Of a stretch of DNA of 49,013 nt, positions 26,920-34,889 are shown in pieces. How positions within the stretch are numbered: position 1 is the first letter of the stretch; every line of letters begins with the position of its first letter. A program made the translations under genes and the position numbers. The notes beneath the pieces are model-generated. The model had not been told where the DNA came from. It ran no database searches and saw nothing but the letters and a program-made list of their open reading frames with translations. The stretch is from a virus: the UHGV virus genome UHGV-0069399; one strand, 5' to 3'.

Positions 26920-28491
26920 TTAAATCCGTAGGTTAGTGACTTTGCCGACTTTCTTCGGCGGTGAATGTAATACGGCGTAGCGCGTACCATCCCAGTCGTG
27001 GTCTTCTTGCTGGGTGTCAACGTCATCAGGGTTCTTGCTGTCGCGAACGAGTACCGGCACACGGCTTATCCAGCCCCGGCAGTAATCAAACACGTAAAAT
27101 GCTGGCTTCTCAGGCATGCCTGACTCCAGCTTCTTGCCCTCAATGACGGCCTCGAGCATGTCAGCAAATAATGCTGCGCCGTTCACGCGCGATCCGGGTT
27201 TCTTATTGGATGGCACCCATTTAACGCCCTGCGATTCCATCTTCTGGGCAATGGATAGCTCATCATCGCCGGTGTTGTATATAGCCCCATCAGCCGGGCC
27301 GGAACTAACCTGCTTGCAGATGCCCGGCATTATGTTCAGTTGTCCCTGCGTCACGCCGTTGAGCTTTATCTCATCCGGCTCAGCAAGTTCTATTCCCTTA
27401 AGACGTTTATCAACCCATGCCACGCCTTTTGCGACGTTCGTCGAGGACATATTCAGACCTTTGTTCAGCTCATCAGGCGGGCAGCCGTACCACTCACCTA
27501 TCAGAATCAGCGACCCGGCAGGTGGGCAGAACTGGCGACCGTCCGACAGCTCTGCGGCGGTGCCGTCAGTACGCGCCCACCATAGATTAGAGAAGGGTTT
27601 CGATTCGCCCCAGTCATGGGAGCGGTCGACGGTCCAGCTATCCGGTATCCGGAACGGTTTGATAACGTGTAGTGACGCATTCCACAGGTGGTCAAAGCGT
27701 CCGCCGCTGGTGACGTCCCAAGAGCCCTCTACCCACGCTTTACGCCGGTTAGGGTCTTTGATAGCCATCAACGTCGCTATGTATTGCGGATCGAGATACG
27801 GGTTCTCTTTAAATGAGCCGTGAATCGCAACGCGGGTAAGCGTTACATCCTCTTCCCGCTCCGTCTGCGGGTTAAACACCTTCTGCGTTTCGCGAATGAT
27901 GGTGCCGCGCGGTGCTGGCTCAATGAAGCGCTTCTTCACCCAGGTATGGCCGATGCCAAACGGGTTCGTCGTGCTGAACGTTTCCAGGGGAATAGGCTTC
28001 AGCATGCTACCGTCAGGCAGCGGATAGTTTTCTGGCCGGAACGACGAGCGACGGCATGAGAACATCATTTCGTAGAACTCGGCAGACTGCTGTTTTGTAA
28101 GTTCGTTAAAGCCGATAAACGGGAACTCCTGTCCGTGATAGTCCCAGTAGTCGCTCTCTTCTTTCCCGAAGCGGAAAAGCAGCTCCTCTCCGGTCGGCCA
28201 AACCCATCGCAATTCACTGGCGGATGCAAGATATCGAGCCCCGTCGTTAAACAGGCGATACATACGTTTTGACTGGGTAATGATGTCGGTGAGGTTTTTA
28301 TACTCGGTATCGAAAATGACACCTCGCCAGAACGAGCCATAGCCCAGGCCAACCAGTCGACGAAAGCGCGCCAACTGCGCAGCAGTCTTACCAGGTCCGC
28401 GCGTCCCCTCGTAGAGGATTTCGTTACATGGGCAACTCAGGGAGAGCGATTGCGACCCCGGCAAAGGTTTCCAGACGGCTTTATAATTCAT
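26920..28491 (-). CDS. terminase large subunit
   Basis: 523 aa; N-terminal Walker A motif GTRGPGKT; C-terminal nuclease-like region; position. Confidence 0.9.
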   Translation of the reverse strand: MNYKAVWKPLPGSQSLSLSCPCNEILYEGTRGPGKTAAQLARFRRLVGLGYGSFWRGVIFDTEYKNLTDIITQSKRMYRLFNDGARYLASASELRWVWPTGEELLFRFGKEESDYWDYHGQEFPFIGFNELTKQQSAEFYEMMFSCRRSSFRPENYPLPDGSMLKPIPLETFSTTNPFGIGHTWVKKRFIEPAPRGTIIRETQKVFNPQTEREEDVTLTRVAIHGSFKENPYLDPQYIATLMAIKDPNRRKAWVEGSWDVTSGGRFDHLWNASLHVIKPFRIPDSWTVDRSHDWGESKPFSNLWWARTDGTAAELSDGRQFCPPAGSLILIGEWYGCPPDELNKGLNMSSTNVAKGVAWVDKRLKGIELAEPDEIKLNGVTQGQLNIMPGICKQVSSGPADGAIYNTGDDELSIAQKMESQGVKWVPSNKKPGSRVNGAALFADMLEAVIEGKKLESGMPEKPAFYVFDYCRGWISRVPVLVRDSKNPDDVDTQQEDHDWDGTRYAVLHSPPKKVGKVTNLRI

Positions 28492-29063
28492 CCACCAAGA
28501 ACCTCGCTCTGCTGTTTCTGTGCTGCTGCTTCCCAGCTATCCACATTGTCGCTGGTCGGTACCAGAATAACGTTGTGGGTCGCCACGACTTTCTGTTCGA
28601 CCTGCTCTTTGAAGGCCTGCACCTTGATGTGCTTGCCGAGCAGTTCAAGGTTCTTGACCTTATCCGGCCACTTAATCTTCTTGAGCAGTGCGGCGGTGTT
28701 TCCCTCGGCGGACATCTCGACGACATCCAGCCCGGATAATGTCGTCCTCCAGACCTTCGGCCACTGTGACACTGGCCTGAGTTCACCGGTCGAGGTCAGG
28801 ATGTCCAGCACGTCCATCTGGTCTATCTCAACGAGACGATTCAGGACGTATGTCGCATTTATGCCAACCAGATCATTGCGTTGCGCTTTAAGTTCGGCAA
28901 TTCTGGCCTGGATGTCAGGTTTTGACAGGTTTTCGGACGCAGTGCGGTTAGCTGTCTTTGCGCTGTACCCCGCCCGAATAGCCGCTTGCGTGGCGTTTAA
29001 ATCGATGAGGTACTCGCGACAGAACATCTCTTGTTTGTCGGTAAGTGCCATGTTTACCTTCAA
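28488..29063 (-). CDS. terminase small subunit (Terminase_2-type)
   Basis: N-terminus LTDKQEMFCREYLIDLNATQAAIRAGYS is the characteristic small-terminase DNA-binding motif; overlaps the terL start. Confidence 0.85.
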   Translation of the reverse strand: MKVNMALTDKQEMFCREYLIDLNATQAAIRAGYSAKTANRTASENLSKPDIQARIAELKAQRNDLVGINATYVLNRLVEIDQMDVLDILTSTGELRPVSQWPKVWRTTLSGLDVVEMSAEGNTAALLKKIKWPDKVKNLELLGKHIKVQAFKEQVEQKVVATHNVILVPTSDNVDSWEAAAQKQQSEVLGG

Positions 29064-29073
29064 GGAGCAGGAT

Positions 29074-29265
29074 ATGAGTAATTATAAAATTGGTGACAAA
29101 GTGAAACTTAAATCCGGCGGACCGGTTATGACTGTTCATGACACCAATGTGCAAGTCCCAAAATATCGGGGAAACTTACGGTGCCAATGGTTTGCAGGAA
29201 AGAAACTTGAAGAAGGTTATTTCCCGGATGACTCACTTGAGGAAGTCGGGGATGACGAACAATAA
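29074..29265 (+). CDS. DUF2158/YodC-like small protein (63 aa)
   Basis: AGGAGCAGG RBS then ATG at 29074; MSNYKIGDKVKLKSGGPVMTV motif typical of the YodC-like small-protein family; opposite strand to the structural operon. Confidence 0.65.
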   Translation: MSNYKIGDKVKLKSGGPVMTVHDTNVQVPKYRGNLRCQWFAGKKLEEGYFPDDSLEEVGDDEQ

Positions 29266-29524
29266 GGATCAAACCATCCTCTGGATGCTTGAACATCTCA
29301 AAAAAGACGGATGTCTATATCAAGATGATGTAGTCGATCATTTGGTTAAAACTAAAAATGAAGACCTTTTAGTTGAGAATGCCGACGGAAATTTAGCTTT
29401 GAGTCGTCAGATTCTTACTTTGTTTATGAAACATACAGCAGACGATGTTGTTTGGGTTAAGCCGCAGCGTTATTGGCGCTATCGTGTCGCTGAGGATGAA
29501 CCTGGTCGTGAGGCCCGTGGGTAA
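29252..29524 (+). CDS. hypothetical protein (90 aa), coupled to the YodC-like gene
   Basis: ATG overlaps the stop of the upstream gene; followed by a terminator. Confidence 0.55.
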   Translation: MTNNKDQTILWMLEHLKKDGCLYQDDVVDHLVKTKNEDLLVENADGNLALSRQILTLFMKHTADDVVWVKPQRYWRYRVAEDEPGREARG

Positions 29525-29528
29525 ATTA

Positions 29529-29553
29529 AAGGGCGATCATTCGCCCTTTTCTT
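29529..29553 (+). terminator. rho-independent terminator of the plus-strand two-gene unit
   Basis: AAGGGCGA-tcat-TCGCCCTT hairpin followed by TTCTT. Confidence 0.6.
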
Positions 29554-29749
29554 CGACACTCTCTTCCAATGGCGTGAACTGCACGCGCTTTACATCGGCC
29601 GGAGCAAAATACAGCCACTGGCCCGTTTCCGTCGCCAGCGGCACAAAACCGTTAACCAACTCAGGCTGACGTCTCGACATCTTACCAGTGAAGGTTTCGC
29701 CTGTTTAGGTAGTGAAGAGATGTGGTAGATGTAGGACATTGAGCGCCTC

Positions 29750-29797
29750 TTTATCCGCTGGTAGGGATATCTAGTTTATTATCCGCTGTAGGGGATA
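29750..29797. repeat. direct repeat pair TTATCCGCTG(G)TAGGG(G)ATA, ~28 bp apart
   Basis: Two near-identical ~19-bp copies (29750-29769 and 29778-29797) in a non-coding stretch between the bidirectional terminator and the packaging-gene side. Confidence 0.6.
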
Positions 29798-29827
29798 ATG
29801 AAAAACTCACGTTCAATCATGCAATGT

Positions 29828-29852
29828 AAAAAACCCCGGCAGAGCGGGGTTT
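29828..29852 (-). terminator. rho-independent terminator downstream of the 164-aa accessory gene
   Basis: CCCCG-gcagag-CGGGG hairpin flanked by an A-run and a T-run. Confidence 0.6.
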
Positions 29853-29869
29853 GAAAGTGCCATTAAGAA

Positions 29870-30364
29870 TTAGAGTTCTCTTTTGAAAATACGCGCAGAG
29901 GCTACTTTATCTGTGCCGTTCATTCCATACGGATGTTGCGTATGGTACTTACGAAGCAGTAAATCGCATACCTCTTGATGTCTTGAGAGAAGAATTTTGT
30001 CAACATCACCCTGGTTTTTTGCATCAGGGAATACGTCTAGGTTGACCAAAAACAAAAAGTCATCTTCACCATGCGGGGTGTGAGCCACATACAGATATCC
30101 TTCATCTGCGATTTTAATTGCTGTAAAGCCTGTAACCGATGAAGGCTCAATATATTTATCAATTTCGCCTGGAGGAAGTAAACCTAGAGCATCACGAACC
30201 AATGTGGTGCAGAAAGCCACATCATTAGGATCGTCAAAGTTAACAGCTCGCGTCGCTTGGTTTTTACCAAATGTCTGAAGAATCTTTTCTTCACTATAAC
30301 CTTCTTGGTCCAAATATCTAATCCACTGATATAGGTGCGCCCAAGGATTTCTTTTCCAGCCCAT
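29870..30364 (-). CDS. hypothetical protein (164 aa), accessory gene between lysis and packaging modules
   Basis: ORF with an AT-rich upstream region and its own terminator; no family recognised. Confidence 0.65.
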   Translation of the reverse strand: MGWKRNPWAHLYQWIRYLDQEGYSEEKILQTFGKNQATRAVNFDDPNDVAFCTTLVRDALGLLPPGEIDKYIEPSSVTGFTAIKIADEGYLYVAHTPHGEDDFLFLVNLDVFPDAKNQGDVDKILLSRHQEVCDLLLRKYHTQHPYGMNGTDKVASARIFKREL

Positions 30365-30801
30365 TTCACTCTCCTTTTACCAAAGAAATCCAATAGTACC
30401 GTATATATGTTAGTTCTGTGAAATCTGTAAAATTTAATTAAGACACTGTTCTTTGACGTAGTCCTGCAGATACCCAACCTGCTTCGTCACTGTGACGATT
30501 TGCCCTCTGAGGGTGAAATAATCCTGTTCGACGGCTCAATAAGTTGGGTCGTTACCATCATCCTTACCGATGATGTTGTCTGTTTCACTCACTCAGTAGT
30601 TAGTATGGTTCTGCATTGTCCCTTCACTAATGTCGTGCTGCGATATAATTTCACGGAGGGACATCACTCCGGCACAGCACGCCGTCCCGATGGCCTCCCA
30701 GTCCGGCTTGCTCATGCTTCTTTCCTATTAAAGTAATCCCATTGATGACCTATGGTAAGACGGAAGTAAACCTGTCATCTATGCTACCGAGGAAATTCTC
30801 G

Positions 30802-30990
30802 ATGGACGAAACAATTACTGAAAATGCTATTAAGCAAGCATATAGCGTTACCATCATGCAGCTTTTTAATGTCTATCTAAATTCAGCAAACGATCCCAAC
30901 GCATCAGCAAGATTTCAGGAAGGGCTTCGTCTTGCGATACAAGTCCGAGATGCCTGTATGCAAATCGCCTCCCAAAACCATGCGCCATGA
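30802..30990 (+). CDS. hypothetical small protein (62 aa)
   Basis: GAGGA RBS 8 nt upstream of ATG 30802 (MDETITEN...); convergent with the minus-strand small genes. Weak call. Confidence 0.3.
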   Translation: MDETITENAIKQAYSVTIMQLFNVYLNSANDPNASARFQEGLRLAIQVRDACMQIASQNHAP

Positions 30991-31077
30991 ATTTATTAGC
31001 GGCTATTCACAAACTGCCATTACGATGGGGCTACCCATGGTGATGGCAATAAAAAACCGCCCGAAGGCGGCTTGTTA

Positions 31078-31407
31078 TCAATTACTTAATAACTTTTCGA
31101 TATTGGATGGGATCGGAGCTCCAGGCTCTGCTTTCAGCTTGCTTAGTCTTATGATAATAGCCTGCTTCTCCGCCTCACTCGCTGCTTGGTAATAGGGTTT
31201 TATCCCTTTAATGATATCGTCAACTGTAGCAGTAGAACCAACGCCAGCGCCTGGCTCGTTTTTATTCAAAGCGCTGTAAATAATTTCCTCAATAGCCTGA
31301 TTCATAGTTATTACCCAAAATGAGTGGCGACATACCACAACCTGTATATCGATGTAATACTCGTTGCCCTGTTCAAACTGCTCATGCTGGGGTTTAAGGA
31401 TGCCCAC
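31078..31407 (-). CDS. hypothetical protein (75-109 aa depending on start)
   Basis: ORF immediately downstream of the 72-aa gene (GTG start directly after its stop, or ATG at 31305). Confidence 0.45.
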   Translation of the reverse strand: MGILKPQHEQFEQGNEYYIDIQVVVCRHSFWVITMNQAIEEIIYSALNKNEPGAGVGSTATVDDIIKGIKPYYQAASEAEKQAIIIRLSKLKAEPGAPIPSNIEKLLSN

Positions 31408-31413
31408 GCTTTC

Positions 31414-31632
31414 CTACGCAGTATCGCCGTCAGCCGGTGAGGCAGCTTCAACCACAACCACGTGTGACATCTGGCTTTGCGCAGTTTTTTGCGCAGCTGG
31501 CTTTTTGATATAGCGCCGCGCAGATGTGTAATTCAGTCCCTGCTCTTCGCACCAATCTTTCGGGGAAATACCTGATTTGGCATGGTCGGACAGGAACCGT
31601 TGCTGAAGCTCGCCCCAGTCCGGTTTTGCCAT
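31414..31632 (-). CDS. small DNA-binding-type protein (72 aa) resembling a small-terminase N-terminal HTH domain
   Basis: MAKPDWGELQQRFLSDHAKSGISPKDWCEEQGLNYTSARRY resembles the N-terminal DNA-binding domain of P22/Sf6-type small terminases; too short to be a complete terminase subunit. Confidence 0.5.
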   Translation of the reverse strand: MAKPDWGELQQRFLSDHAKSGISPKDWCEEQGLNYTSARRYIKKPAAQKTAQSQMSHVVVVEAASPADGDTA

Positions 31633-31988
31633 GATTATTCACCAAGTGATCAATATCTATTATCGTAAGGAGGAATAACGTGTATTTTACAAAGTTTGTA
31701 TTTTTATGCTCAGAGCGTAACCATGATCATCGAAGAAGCTAGAGGCTTTTTATTTCAACAAGGTATGCTGGAAGAATGTGTTAAACATCCTATTTATATA
31801 ATTAACGGAAGTACGGATAAGCAGGATGACCCAGTGGTTTTATCTGAATATCTAATCATGATAAATAGCAACGGGGACACCATTGCTGGGCGTTCACCAA
31901 ATAGTCAATGGAGCATGTACCCCATCGCTATTAAAGACACGCACCCTAATATAACAAGTCATCTGCACGCTATAACTATCCCATAATT

Positions 31989-32549
31989 TTATTGGGCGGC
32001 ATTCGCGTTGACTTGTCTCAGCATTTCAATTTCCCGGATGCCCGCTAGCTGGTTATTCGCCTTCTCAATGGTAGCCAGCAGCGGATTAATCCATAGAACA
32101 GCCTGACAGTACGTTATTGAGCTGGCGGCAGCGGTGCTATCACCGGCTGCGTCAGCGTTCCCGGTATCGGGTTGCATTGCGCTGGCACGTAAACGGTACG
32201 CGTATTTGAGCAGCCCACCAGCAACATCAGCAGGCACAGGCAGATCACAGTTTTTTTCACGTCGTAGAATCTCCCGGTATTTGATGACTGTTCTCTCTGT
32301 GCCGGCATCTATCAGCGAATTCATGCGGCTGGCGTTCTCTGCTACTTGGTTAAACCGGTTGAAGTTGAAAGCCTGTGTAGTTATTACCGTCGCCTGTAAT
32401 GCGTTATCGCTGCGCAGTACCCGGTTGTCATTCTCGAACGCGGTCAGCGCCGCATTGCTGCGTACCAGCAGAACACAGAGCACCGCAATGATGGTTACGA
32501 CGACCACCAGCAGAATCGCGACAATCGTAATTTTGCTGGTTTTCATCAA
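31989..32549 (-). CDS. i-spanin (Rz-like)
   Basis: 186 aa; N-terminal transmembrane segment then coiled-coil periplasmic domain; directly downstream of the endolysin gene; contains the embedded Rz1 frame. Confidence 0.8.
32114..32260 (-). CDS. o-spanin (Rz1-like lipoprotein) embedded in the +1 frame of Rz
   Basis: GTG start at 32260 with GGGAGA RBS; lipobox LVGC; proline-rich mature region ([23 protein letters not shown]); wholly inside the Rz gene. Confidence 0.65.
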   Translation of the reverse strand: MKKTVICLCLLMLLVGCSNTRTVYVPAQCNPIPGTLTQPVIAPLPPAQ

Positions 32550-33118
32550 AATACCCCCGGAACTGATACCGGAATGCCTGGGTTAAGCGGCCCGAGCCCA
32601 TCACCAAGAACCTGCGGTTTTTCTGCCCACAGGCAAACTTCACGCTCAATCTCACGCCGGGTGATTAAACCCTTCCACTGTTTGCCACCGGCATATGTCC
32701 AGCGCCGTAATTGTTCGCAAGCCCCTTTTGTGTCGCCCAGGTTGATTTTGCGTAGCAGCGTGGAGGTTTTGAAGTTGCCAGCACCGACGTTGTACGCGAA
32801 TGAGTAAAGTGCACCCCGCATTGTTGCCGGGATCGGAACCTTGATGTAGGGGTCAATCTGACGTGCGATGGTATTCAGATCTTTTGTGAGCAGAATGGCA
32901 CACTCTGTCTCGGTGTACGTCTTCCCGATTTTGACGTCGCTGCCAGTGTGCCCGTAGCATACCGTCCAAACCCCAACTACATCCCGATAAGGCTGATAGC
33001 GCACACCTTCAAGGCCATCATTACCCGTTGGACCAATAATCAACGCCGCTGCGATAGCAATAGCGCCAGCGGGTATAGCTGCAATAACGCTATTCTTCAG
33101 CTTTGGTGGCATAGCCAT
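32546..33118 (-). CDS. SAR endolysin (T4-type lysozyme, GH24) with N-terminal signal-anchor-release domain
   Basis: Hydrophobic Gly/Ala-rich N-terminus ([22 protein letters not shown]) followed by a lysozyme catalytic region ([23 protein letters not shown]); overlaps the holin stop. Confidence 0.85.
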
Positions 33119-33368
33119 TGCGCCGATCCTCCCGTTCTTTCCAGCGGAAATACCAGTTCACTGCACAGGTAATAACTGTGCATGCGATACCGACAATAAT
33201 TGCCCAGTCGCTCAGGCTTAACCCTGCAATTCTGTCGGCCAACATCCAGGACACCTCTTTTGCTGTTTTAGCTGTTTCGGCATATGCCTTCGCTGATACA
33301 CCGCAGCCGGTCAGCGTGGTTCCTGTTCCATATGAAAGTCTGCTGTAAATGGTGCTCATTCTGGTCAT
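33090..33368 (-). CDS. holin (pinholin-like, phage 21 S-type, dual-start MTRM)
   Basis: GGAGGTGAGG RBS upstream of ATG 33368; two transmembrane segments; C-terminal [13 protein letters not shown] resembles the S21 pinholin tail; pairs with the SAR endolysin. Confidence 0.75.
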
Positions 33369-33479
33369 AGCCTCACCTCCGATTTTTCGGATGGCGCTGT
33401 GTGTGATGAAAGGGTCAGGCTTCACGGGCTGGATTTATCAACAAAGCACGTAGTAATTGATTCCCGTGAGCCTGAAATG

Positions 33480-33503
33480 AAAAAGGCCGCCATTTGGCAG
33501 CCT
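33480..33503 (-). terminator. possible terminator (tR'-like) between the lipoprotein gene and the lysis cassette
   Basis: 8-bp stem with one mismatch (AGGCTGCC / GGCGGCCT) and a short T-run on the minus strand. Confidence 0.35.
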
Positions 33504-33748
33504 CGAAAAAAAATAAGATTGTTTAAATCGACATATTAAGTGGATTACCAAAAACCTCTGACATAGCGATAAGACAAATGATGTCGCTATAAGTAACATG
33601 TCATATACCAACGACTGATTTTCCTTTCAGCCTCCTAACAGAGGTATCCGTGCAATGCGCTATCTGAATAGCTCATCACGTACGATACAGCAACATTCTT
33701 CTGTATTAAAATCTATGAAATGAGCAACTGATAATAGTGGTTCAAATA

Positions 33749-33994
33749 CTATCGGCATGAAGCGCTGGTACTGCATTGTAGTGTATCAGTAGGCACCCAT
33801 TTACCATTGCTACATACGAATTTCTTCACTCCAGGAAAACCACCTGAAGTTGCACACGTATAGCATTTCTCTTGCCCATTTACACATGCAGATTGTATTT
33901 GGTTGGGTGATTTATCAATTGTGGAAGAGTTTGTGCTGCATGCTGATAGAAAAAACGCTGATAAAACAGTGGAGTAAAAAATTATCTTATGCAT
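33749..33994 (-). CDS. Cys-rich small lipoprotein (81 aa), gene between Q and the lysis cassette
   Basis: Signal peptide with lipobox LSAC; six further Cys in the mature part; embedded in ~700 bp of AT-rich DNA. Confidence 0.7.
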   Translation of the reverse strand: MHKIIFYSTVLSAFFLSACSTNSSTIDKSPNQIQSACVNGQEKCYTCATSGGFPGVKKFVCSNGKWVPTDTLQCSTSASCR

Positions 33995-34199
33995 TTTTTA
34001 TACCTTCATAAGATTATTAATATTATATATTTATCATTATAGGCGCCTTTAAAAATCCTTCCAACCGACATTCAGAATGCTTTTTCTTACTCTCCAGAAA
34101 CGCAAAAACCCAAGGCGTCAACCTCAGGCTTGAAAACTCATTTACTGCCAGTGCATACAACAATGGCACAATATCAGATTTACACGAAATATATCCATT

Positions 34200-34889
34200 T
34201 CAGTTCGGTTTTGCAAGACTTACATCCAAATTTGTCGCCTTTTGTTGTGAACGTGATCGCGAAACAGAAAGGAGCGCCTGATTATCAAGGTGCACGAATT
34301 CTTGTTTCATCGCCAGCCAGTGCGGGAGGTAGGTTTCAGTCCAAGTTGGCTTTGATACCCCTACCAGTTGCGCCAGCTGCTGGTACTCGTATGTGCTGCG
34401 CCCTGCTAGTTCTGCTTTCACATCCTGAGCAGCAAGCCAAATTAACGCCTTCAACCGTTCGATGGTTTTACCAGCTATCTTTCGAGACCCCATCTGCGAC
34501 TTGAATTCAGCCCACGCCCACTGAGTAATCAACACCTGACTCTCCCAGCTTACGTTCTCGCTGTAGTTCCACAGTAGCCAGGCCTTCTGGGGTTCTTCAA
34601 GTGACATCAGCGCCCGGCGCCACGATGCGGTGTAGAATTCTACCGGCTGCACCAGGGGAATATGTGAACCCTTGGCATGCGACTGTTTGCCCGGTATTGG
34701 TGGGTTATCCAGCGTAATCATTTTCCCGGTCACTTCATCATACACACGGAGCTTCTTACGTTTAAACGTTCCCGTATCAAACTGGGCGTTCTCAAGCCAC
34801 GCCATCAACTGCCCTTTCGTCGCACCACTTAAATCGGCGGTGGCCACCATCAGCTGCTGGCGCACGTATTCGAGAAATTGAGTGTTCAT
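34200..34889 (-). CDS. putative late-gene antiterminator (Q-like)
   Basis: 229 aa at the Q position (after the nin-like region, before the late promoter and lysis genes). Call is positional; the sequence is not lambda Q-like. Confidence 0.5.
   Translation of the reverse strand: MNTQFLEYVRQQLMVATADLSGATKGQLMAWLENAQFDTGTFKRKKLRVYDEVTGKMITLDNPPIPGKQSHAKGSHIPLVQPVEFYTASWRRALMSLEEPQKAWLLWNYSENVSWESQVLITQWAWAEFKSQMGSRKIAGKTIERLKALIWLAAQDVKAELAGRSTYEYQQLAQLVGVSKPTWTETYLPHWLAMKQEFVHLDNQALLSVSRSRSQQKATNLDVSLAKPN

Follow-up and report, generated by a model that had tools for sequence, protein, structure and literature searches.

The lysis genes of phages 21, HP1 and HK225 are the closest described counterparts of the system considered here. 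In phage 21 the pinholin S21 works with R21, a signal-anchor-release (SAR) endolysin that is regulated by refolding, while Lyz of phage P1 is regulated by a disulfide. The Hol protein of HP1 has been shown experimentally to be a pinholin, that is a small, non-lytic, depolarising holin paired with a SAR endolysin (PMC7312051), and the Mulock holin, which is related to the one described below, has been placed in class II by its annotators, also with a SAR endolysin (PMC6856289). A census of spanins groups those of HK225, ZF40 and mEp237 as an embedded two-component family (PMC6139136). Here we describe a lysis cassette of this general kind in UHGV virus genome UHGV-0069399, a viral DNA of 49,013 nucleotides (nt) that is referred to below, at its full length, as the window.

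The cassette comprises genes for a holin, an endolysin and the spanins Rz and Rz1, all on the minus strand, and extends from the first ATG of the holin (33368) to the stop codon of Rz (31989). A sequence-only reading had proposed a pinholin/SAR endolysin cassette with exactly this span, 31989-33368, leaving the strand unstated. The four open reading frames (ORFs) are intact, with an overlap of 29 nt between holin and endolysin and of 1 nt between endolysin and Rz, and with Rz1 fully embedded in Rz. Compared with phage HK225 the cassette has 86% nucleotide identity across 92% of the query, with equal gene lengths and overlaps, and prophages of Escherichia coli match it at 86-88%. We conclude that the four genes very probably form a complete and functional lysis cassette, located in the late operon of a temperate phage or prophage of the Enterobacteriaceae that is lambdoid and HK225-like. 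The integrity of the genes, their homologies and sequence signals, the nesting of Rz1, its conservation and the gene context are direct observations on the locus and its relatives. Features of the window lie on the minus strand unless marked (+).

The four genes of the cassette

The first gene (33090..33368) encodes a holin/antiholin of 92 amino acids (aa), assigned to class II (HP1/P21-S superfamily) from its ORF and from Pfam and PHROG matches. Its N-terminus reads MTRM, the dual-start arrangement that had been proposed, with M1 at 33368-33366, M4 at 33359-33357 and Arg3 in between, and the Shine-Dalgarno sequence GGAGGT (33375..33380) lies 6 nt 5' of M1. The pattern M-x-[KR]-M is present in 53 of 56 full-length holin homologues, and use of both starts is predicted here. 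At the dual start, an sdi-like RNA structure was looked for and the weak hairpin that overlaps the Shine-Dalgarno sequence was not significant (z = -1.36). A start at an upstream GTG (33425), which would give a holin of 111 aa, was rejected because the Shine-Dalgarno sequence would fall inside the extension and M1 is the conserved N-terminus of the family.

Two Pfam families match the holin above their cutoffs and together cover residues 38-80 only. The better of them is the HP1 holin family PF16080 (residues 41-79; 1.7e-11, 44.3 bits, cutoff 28.8) and not the P21 holin S family PF04971 (1.6e-7, 31.6 bits, cutoff 26); the PHROG match is to the holins of PHROG 20 (2.9e-21). A BLASTP comparison with S21, using a sequence 100% identical to that of Escherichia phage 21 (OL657228), gave 42% identity over 38 residues (E = 2e-4; holin residues 50-84), including N-x-Y-F...REDRR, and this match and that to PF04971 bear out the suggestion of a phage-21-like C-terminal tail. 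Identity to S21 over the whole protein is 26%, and the holin is not an S21 orthologue. It is 95% identical to the holin of HK225 (87 of 92 residues), an identical protein is encoded on at least 55 IMG/VR contigs, and a 95%-identical cluster (named holin, Citrobacter freundii) has 561 member sequences. In our alignments T67 and N71 are invariant both across the family and in S21. Holins of 92 aa differ from the commoner holins of 89 aa by a 9-nt tandem duplication (33258-33275) that gives TAK-TAK (ETAKTAKE compared with ETAKE) at residues 32-37.

The second gene (32546..33118) starts within the 3' end of the holin gene and encodes a SAR endolysin of 190 aa, an R21-type GH24 muramidase (PF00959, 4.4e-46; PHROG 7). 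Among solved structures it matches R21 of phage 21 (PDB 3hde, 3.2e-87) and RrrD of E. coli (4zpu, 1.7e-86), and residues 3-166 align to both at about 80% identity with the SAR domain included. The SAR segment itself comprises residues 9-33 (33020..33094), a run of 25 uncharged residues, 54% of them Gly, Ala, Ser or Thr, with a Kyte-Doolittle (KD) hydropathy of 2.5; its R21 counterpart has 24 residues and a KD of 2.3 and is colinear residue for residue. K6 and K8 precede this segment, and E37-x8-D46-x5-T52 aligns with E35, D44 and T50 of R21. The hydrophobic SAR N-terminus that had been read from the DNA is therefore borne out by an alignment to R21 that begins at residue 3. There is no cysteine in residues 1-33, which suggests by analogy that the endolysin should be regulated by refolding in the manner of R21, without a caging disulfide, rather than by the disulfide mechanism of P1 Lyz.

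Beyond the region shared with R21 the endolysin carries a Pro/Gly-rich C-terminal tail of 24 residues (32549..32620; motif EKPxxLxDGxGPLxPGxPxxVPGVF), which is absent from the endolysins R21, RrrD and those of Mulock and BTP1. In the phage collection only HK225 has the tail, and every other close homologue ends with residue 167. When the endolysin is compared with two Kluyvera homologues the ratio of synonymous to nonsynonymous codon changes is 9:5 and 10:6 in the tail and 59:28 and 61:25 in the catalytic core, and between the two Kluyvera sequences it is 14:4 in the tail. On these codon counts the tail is a real coding sequence under purifying selection. It is found 5' of two unrelated Rz families and so belongs to the endolysin; the ideas that it is part of the Rz module or read-through junk were rejected on the same two grounds.

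The i-spanin Rz (31989..32546; 185 aa; PHROG 214 Rz-like spanin, 2.1e-52) has an ATG that shares one base with the endolysin TGA. It has an N-terminal transmembrane domain (TMD) at residues 6-28 (32463-32531; KD 3.6) and a periplasmic domain that carries Cys100 and Cys146. The o-spanin Rz1 (32114..32260; 48 aa; PHROG 456, 1.6e-7) lies wholly inside Rz in the +1 frame, starting 286 nt past the Rz start (1 mod 3) and ending 125 nt ahead of the Rz stop. Its GTG start has GGGAG 9 nt upstream, the lipobox LVGC (L14-V15-G16-C17; 32210-32221) is followed by Ser at +2, and the mature protein would have 32 aa, of which 7 are Pro (22%), and one internal Cys. The GTG start, the lipobox, the proline content and the frame all agree with what had been read from the DNA. 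Neither Rz nor Rz1 has a match to Pfam Phage_lysis. An in-frame ATG further upstream (32308) was rejected as the Rz1 start; it has no Shine-Dalgarno sequence whereas GGGAG precedes the GTG at 32260, and the GTG is preferred because it is the first available start in eight related loci.

These eight belong to a set of 24 loci that were obtained by scanning with Rz as the query and taking one genome per species (Kluyvera, Citrobacter, Enterobacter, Trabulsiella, Scandinavium, Pseudocitrobacter, Phytobacter and others). An embedded Rz1 in the +1 frame is found in 20 of the 24, from at least eight genera, with the conserved sequence VK[KR]P[VA]ICLFLL..LVGCS[NT]...PLPPA. In lambda, too, Rz1 lies entirely within Rz in the +1 frame. 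The architecture had been called known but non-default, and the first half of that description stands, HK225 being an example; the second half applies to the pairing of a class II holin with a SAR endolysin, which is the only non-lambda option in the cassette, and not to the embedded Rz1, which is the default of lambda and 21.

Holin topology and alternative readings

The sole clearly hydrophobic span of the holin is residues 55-74 (33147..33206), here called TMD2, which has 20 uncharged residues, a KD of 1.9-2.05 and an AlphaFold confidence (predicted local distance difference test, pLDDT) of about 80-88. Nearer the N-terminus, residues 11-26 (33291..33338) form a run without charges, rich in Gly, Thr and Ser, whose counterpart in the alignments with S21 and the BTP1 holin is the N-terminal half of TMD1. 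This run has 16 uncharged residues, 65% of them Gly, Ala, Ser or Thr, and a KD of 0.28, compared with 22 residues and a KD of 0.64 for TMD1 of S21, and it is 16 residues long in 53 of 56 homologues. At residues 25-49 (33222..33296) the alignments place a charged, helix-prone insertion, 25 residues long when measured against the class II holin of BTP1 (67 aa) and about 18 against S21, exactly inside TMD1 of the BTP1-type holins. The AlphaFold model, built from a 56-sequence alignment, has helices at residues 26-49, with low confidence, and at 52-88; its mean pLDDT of 59.7 was too low for a fold search. There are two hydrophobic segments in the holin, a strong one and a marginal one, rather than three, and the protein is clearly not a canonical three-TMD holin.

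Because a soluble endolysin cannot be released by a pinholin, the partners of this holin family were checked. A SAR-type endolysin stands beside the holin in 82 of 82 loci (79 of 79 from IMG/VR and 3 of 3 distant ones), although the holins of most of these loci are nearly identical, which makes for fewer independent samples than loci. At least three types of endolysin are involved (R21-like, P1 Lyz-like and a 182-aa type), and no soluble endolysin partner was found among the 82. In the 79 IMG/VR loci the gene after the holin encodes an endolysin with a hydrophobic N-terminal segment, which is a 190-aa R21-like protein in 16 and of the 182-aa type in 63. The distant holins (60-65% identity; Pectobacterium, Brenneria and Symbiopectobacterium) are followed by SAR endolysins of the P1 Lyz-like or 182-aa type, and Mulock has an R21-like one.

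Several points weigh against calling the holin a pinholin outright. The label, which was part of the sequence-only reading, would follow from homology of the C-terminal half to the pinholin families PF04971 and PF16080, from the dual start and from the constant pairing with SAR endolysins, and it is best kept as a probable assignment for a protein with one clear TMD. The TMD calls come from the KD and Hessa hydropathy scales applied by hand. The N-terminal half of the holin has no match to the S21 or HP1 profiles, the equivalent of TMD1 is a short uncharged run of low hydropathy followed by the charged insertion, and AlphaFold gives no helix for residues 1-25, where pLDDT is about 40; for these three reasons a two-TMD pinholin with a SAR-type TMD1 is only a candidate model here. 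SAR endolysins are also reported to function with canonical holins in P1 and N4, and the pairing described above therefore agrees with a pinholin but is no proof of pinholes.

With these points in mind, a sequence of events can be proposed for the cassette from what is known of the families. Late transcription antiterminated by Q would yield the four lysis proteins. The SAR endolysin would be exported by Sec and held inactive in the inner membrane, tethered by its weakly hydrophobic N-terminal segment, while the small holin would build up in the same membrane, the longer form from M1 with the extra charge of Arg3 probably acting as antiholin and the form from M4 as effector. At a programmed time the holin would oligomerise through its single strong transmembrane helix and depolarise the membrane. 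Depolarisation would free the SAR segment, and the endolysin, refolding as R21 does, would degrade the peptidoglycan. Last, a complex of Rz in the inner membrane and the lipoprotein Rz1 in the outer membrane would bridge the periplasm and disrupt the outer membrane. Timing, hole size, the dynamics of topology and the antiholin role are thus predicted from relatives of these proteins.

A different view of the holin leaves the cassette as described and holds that the protein is not an S21-type pinholin but has a single TMD, with an N-terminal region of 54 residues that never crosses the bilayer. That region might be translocated N-out at the outset or rest on the surface of the membrane, and the dual start might control translocation of the N-terminal tail, or the holes might be larger; we consider both the general view and these particular forms of it rather unlikely. 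They would account for residues 55-74 being the only strong hydrophobic span, for a charged insertion of 25 residues exactly where BTP1 and S21 have TMD1, and for the missing N-terminal transmembrane helix in AlphaFold. The HP1 holin is similar in that most predictors give it a single TMD and an unusual topology has been reported for it (PMC7312051). Against this, these scales assign hardly any hydrophobicity to TMD1 of S21 either (KD 0.64), yet it is reported to have been established experimentally as a SAR TMD, by Park et al. in 2006. The Gly/Thr-rich run and R10 and K27 hardly vary in the family, as they should if this segment is functional and membrane-active. In addition, SAR endolysins are the exclusive partners of the holin, and the homologue in Mulock was assigned to class II by curators of phage biology (PMC6856289). 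A further suggestion, to which we give slightly less credence again, is that the 89-92-aa holins of HK225, mEp237 and Mulock are a distinct derivative of the class II pinholins, in which a conserved charged helical insertion splits the SAR-type TMD1. The N-terminal regulatory domain might then no longer insert, and some other topological switch, for example translocation of the N-terminal tail gated by the Arg of the dual start, might set the timing. Quite separately, and as speculatively, the tail of the R21-type endolysin could be a new regulatory or targeting element.

The reading of the cassette as complete and functional has also to be set against decay, in which it would be a non-functional remnant in a cryptic prophage. 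The surroundings lend this some colour, being mosaic, with the 5' part (72 aa) of a different terS just downstream and low-GC cargo on both sides. The cassette itself shows little sign of it: none of the four ORFs is truncated and all are colinear with their counterparts in HK225, which forms plaques, the endolysin has more synonymous than nonsynonymous changes, the ribosome-binding sites are preserved, and Rz1 is intact in spite of the constraint of double coding. Decay is accordingly very improbable. A last alternative, that the embedded Rz1 is a chance out-of-frame ORF, is already effectively refuted. Length by itself would allow it, since among 5000 shuffles of the Rz codon order 679 (13.6%) contained an out-of-frame ORF of at least 48 codons, and the match of Rz1 to the Pfam family LysC/Rz1-like is weak and falls below cutoff. 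However, none of the 5000 shuffles produced such an ORF with a lipoprotein signal, the protein matches PHROG 456, its sequence is conserved in the 20 related loci described above, and the o-spanin of HK225 has been catalogued (PMC6139136).

Genomic surroundings

Upstream of the cassette lies the gene for the late antiterminator Q (34200..34889; PF06323, 2e-100; PHROG 304), and downstream lie terS (28488..29063), with a complete Terminase_2 domain (positions 1-139 of 141), and terL (26920..28491). With Q upstream and terS and terL downstream, the cassette is in its normal position in a lambdoid late operon. In the gap between Q and the holin a scan made purely for consensus sequences located a promoter-like site (34064-34036) and a terminator-like hairpin (33504-33483), which are candidates for pR' and tR'.

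The same gap (33369-34199) contains an ORF for a putative Cys-rich lipoprotein of 81 aa (33749-33994; MHKIIFYSTVLSAFFLSAC..., lipobox LSAC, seven Cys in the mature part). It sits in an island of 35-38% GC and is flanked by the promoter-like site and the terminator-like hairpin. The protein has no match in Pfam, PHROG or PADLOC and none by tblastn in 50,697 phage records, and the gene is absent from about 110 related loci. In the E. coli prophages conservation of the gap is limited to its two ends, with another hypothetical gene between them, and the lipoprotein gene looks like a moron in a cargo slot. In three distant relatives the slot just 5' of the holin (L107 1924-2382, L108 1620-2281 and L109 972-1534) holds other cargo, comprising an AcrIF11-like ADP-ribosyltransferase, a HicAB toxin-antitoxin pair and a HigB-like toxin pair, which fits the Q-holin gap being a general cargo site; L109 also has a pyocin S-type gene downstream. 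There are no tRNA genes in the window, in contrast to the Q-S gap of Mulock and BTP1.

On the other side of the cassette an ORF of 72 aa (31414..31632) matches only the N-terminal 54 positions of the small terminase PHROG 51, and the complete terS is 2.35 kb further on. Homologues of this 72-aa N-terminal domain come after the lysis cassette in 17 related loci. The PHROG match had suggested a terS split by a 2.3-kb insertion, which we rejected because 28488..29063 encodes a complete Terminase_2 protein and the 72-aa ORF matches the N-terminus of a different terS type. The alternatives for this ORF are therefore a mosaic remnant or a separate small protein, and the first is more probable: a displaced terS would have left its 5' end at the mosaic junction with an HK639-like packaging module. 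Between the cassette and terS there is a stretch of low GC (40-47%; 29064-31413 and 31696-31986) with ORFs of 164 aa (29870..30364, minus), 109 aa (31078..31407, minus; PHROG 18074, function unknown), 128 aa (29138..29524 (+)) and 96 aa (31696..31986 (+)). None of these has a match in Pfam, NCBIfam or PADLOC, and the stretch may be accessory or defence cargo.

Comparison with known systems

Alignment with S21 and R21 had been suggested as a check on the cassette, and phage 21 is close in some respects and distant in others. The likeness includes the endolysin, which has about 80% identity to R21 and a SAR domain colinear with that of R21, the M-x-x-M dual start, in which a basic residue separates the methionines, the NxYF..REDRR tail, the embedded Rz1 and the polar residues T67 and N71 of holin TMD2, which correspond to T51 and N55 of S21. 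On the other hand the window holin has 92 aa compared with 71 in S21, it has the insertion of about 18 residues at TMD1 and lacks the YWFLQWL half of that domain, the endolysin has its extra 24-residue tail, and Rz and Rz1 belong to another family (PHROG 214 and 456). The closest holins of a characterised type are the class II holins of P22-like Salmonella phages with R21-like endolysins, namely BTP1 S, PS34 gp13 and that of SPN9CC. The window holin is 49% identical to these overall and 64-67% over TMD2 and the tail, and shares with them the MxRM dual start, the motif S-Y-x-x-G-x-L-T and the family of the partner endolysin; they differ in having 67 aa and a contiguous TMD1 of 18 residues, into which the window holin has 25 extra residues. 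The likeness to HP1 Hol and Lys lies in PF16080 being the best-scoring Pfam family and in the combination of a small holin with a SAR endolysin, but HP1 Hol has 78 aa, has no dual start and is reported to take an N-in/C-out topology on activation (PMC7312051).

The main value of the cassette is as an internal control. A reading of the DNA alone got the module, the frames, the GTG-started nested gene and the protein classes right, and its description of the locus as a good internal consistency check is upheld, as every concrete element and the exact coordinates agree with the present analysis. Two points may interest specialists in lysis, namely the insertion that is conserved in a very common enterobacterial subfamily of holins, in the segment that controls triggering of the S21 pinholin, and a sub-clade of R21-type endolysins with a conserved C-terminal tail under purifying selection. 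Otherwise the cassette is an ordinary feature of a type already known from HK225 and from hundreds of enterobacterial prophages, and it adds no biology beyond phages 21, HP1 and HK225.

The comparison with HK225 (NC_019717) is the closest of all. The gene order is the same, with gp67 as holin, gp68 as endolysin, gp69 as Rz-like spanin and an embedded Rz1 that is unannotated there. The HK225 endolysin is 88% identical to that of the window, with an identical 24-residue tail, and its Rz and Rz1 are of the same family as those of the window. The two differ at the C-terminus of Rz, which diverges and is seven residues longer in the window, in the cargo between Q and the holin, and in the packaging module downstream, which is HK639-like in the window. 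As the whole cassette matches HK225 at the nucleotide level, it is of a kind already known.

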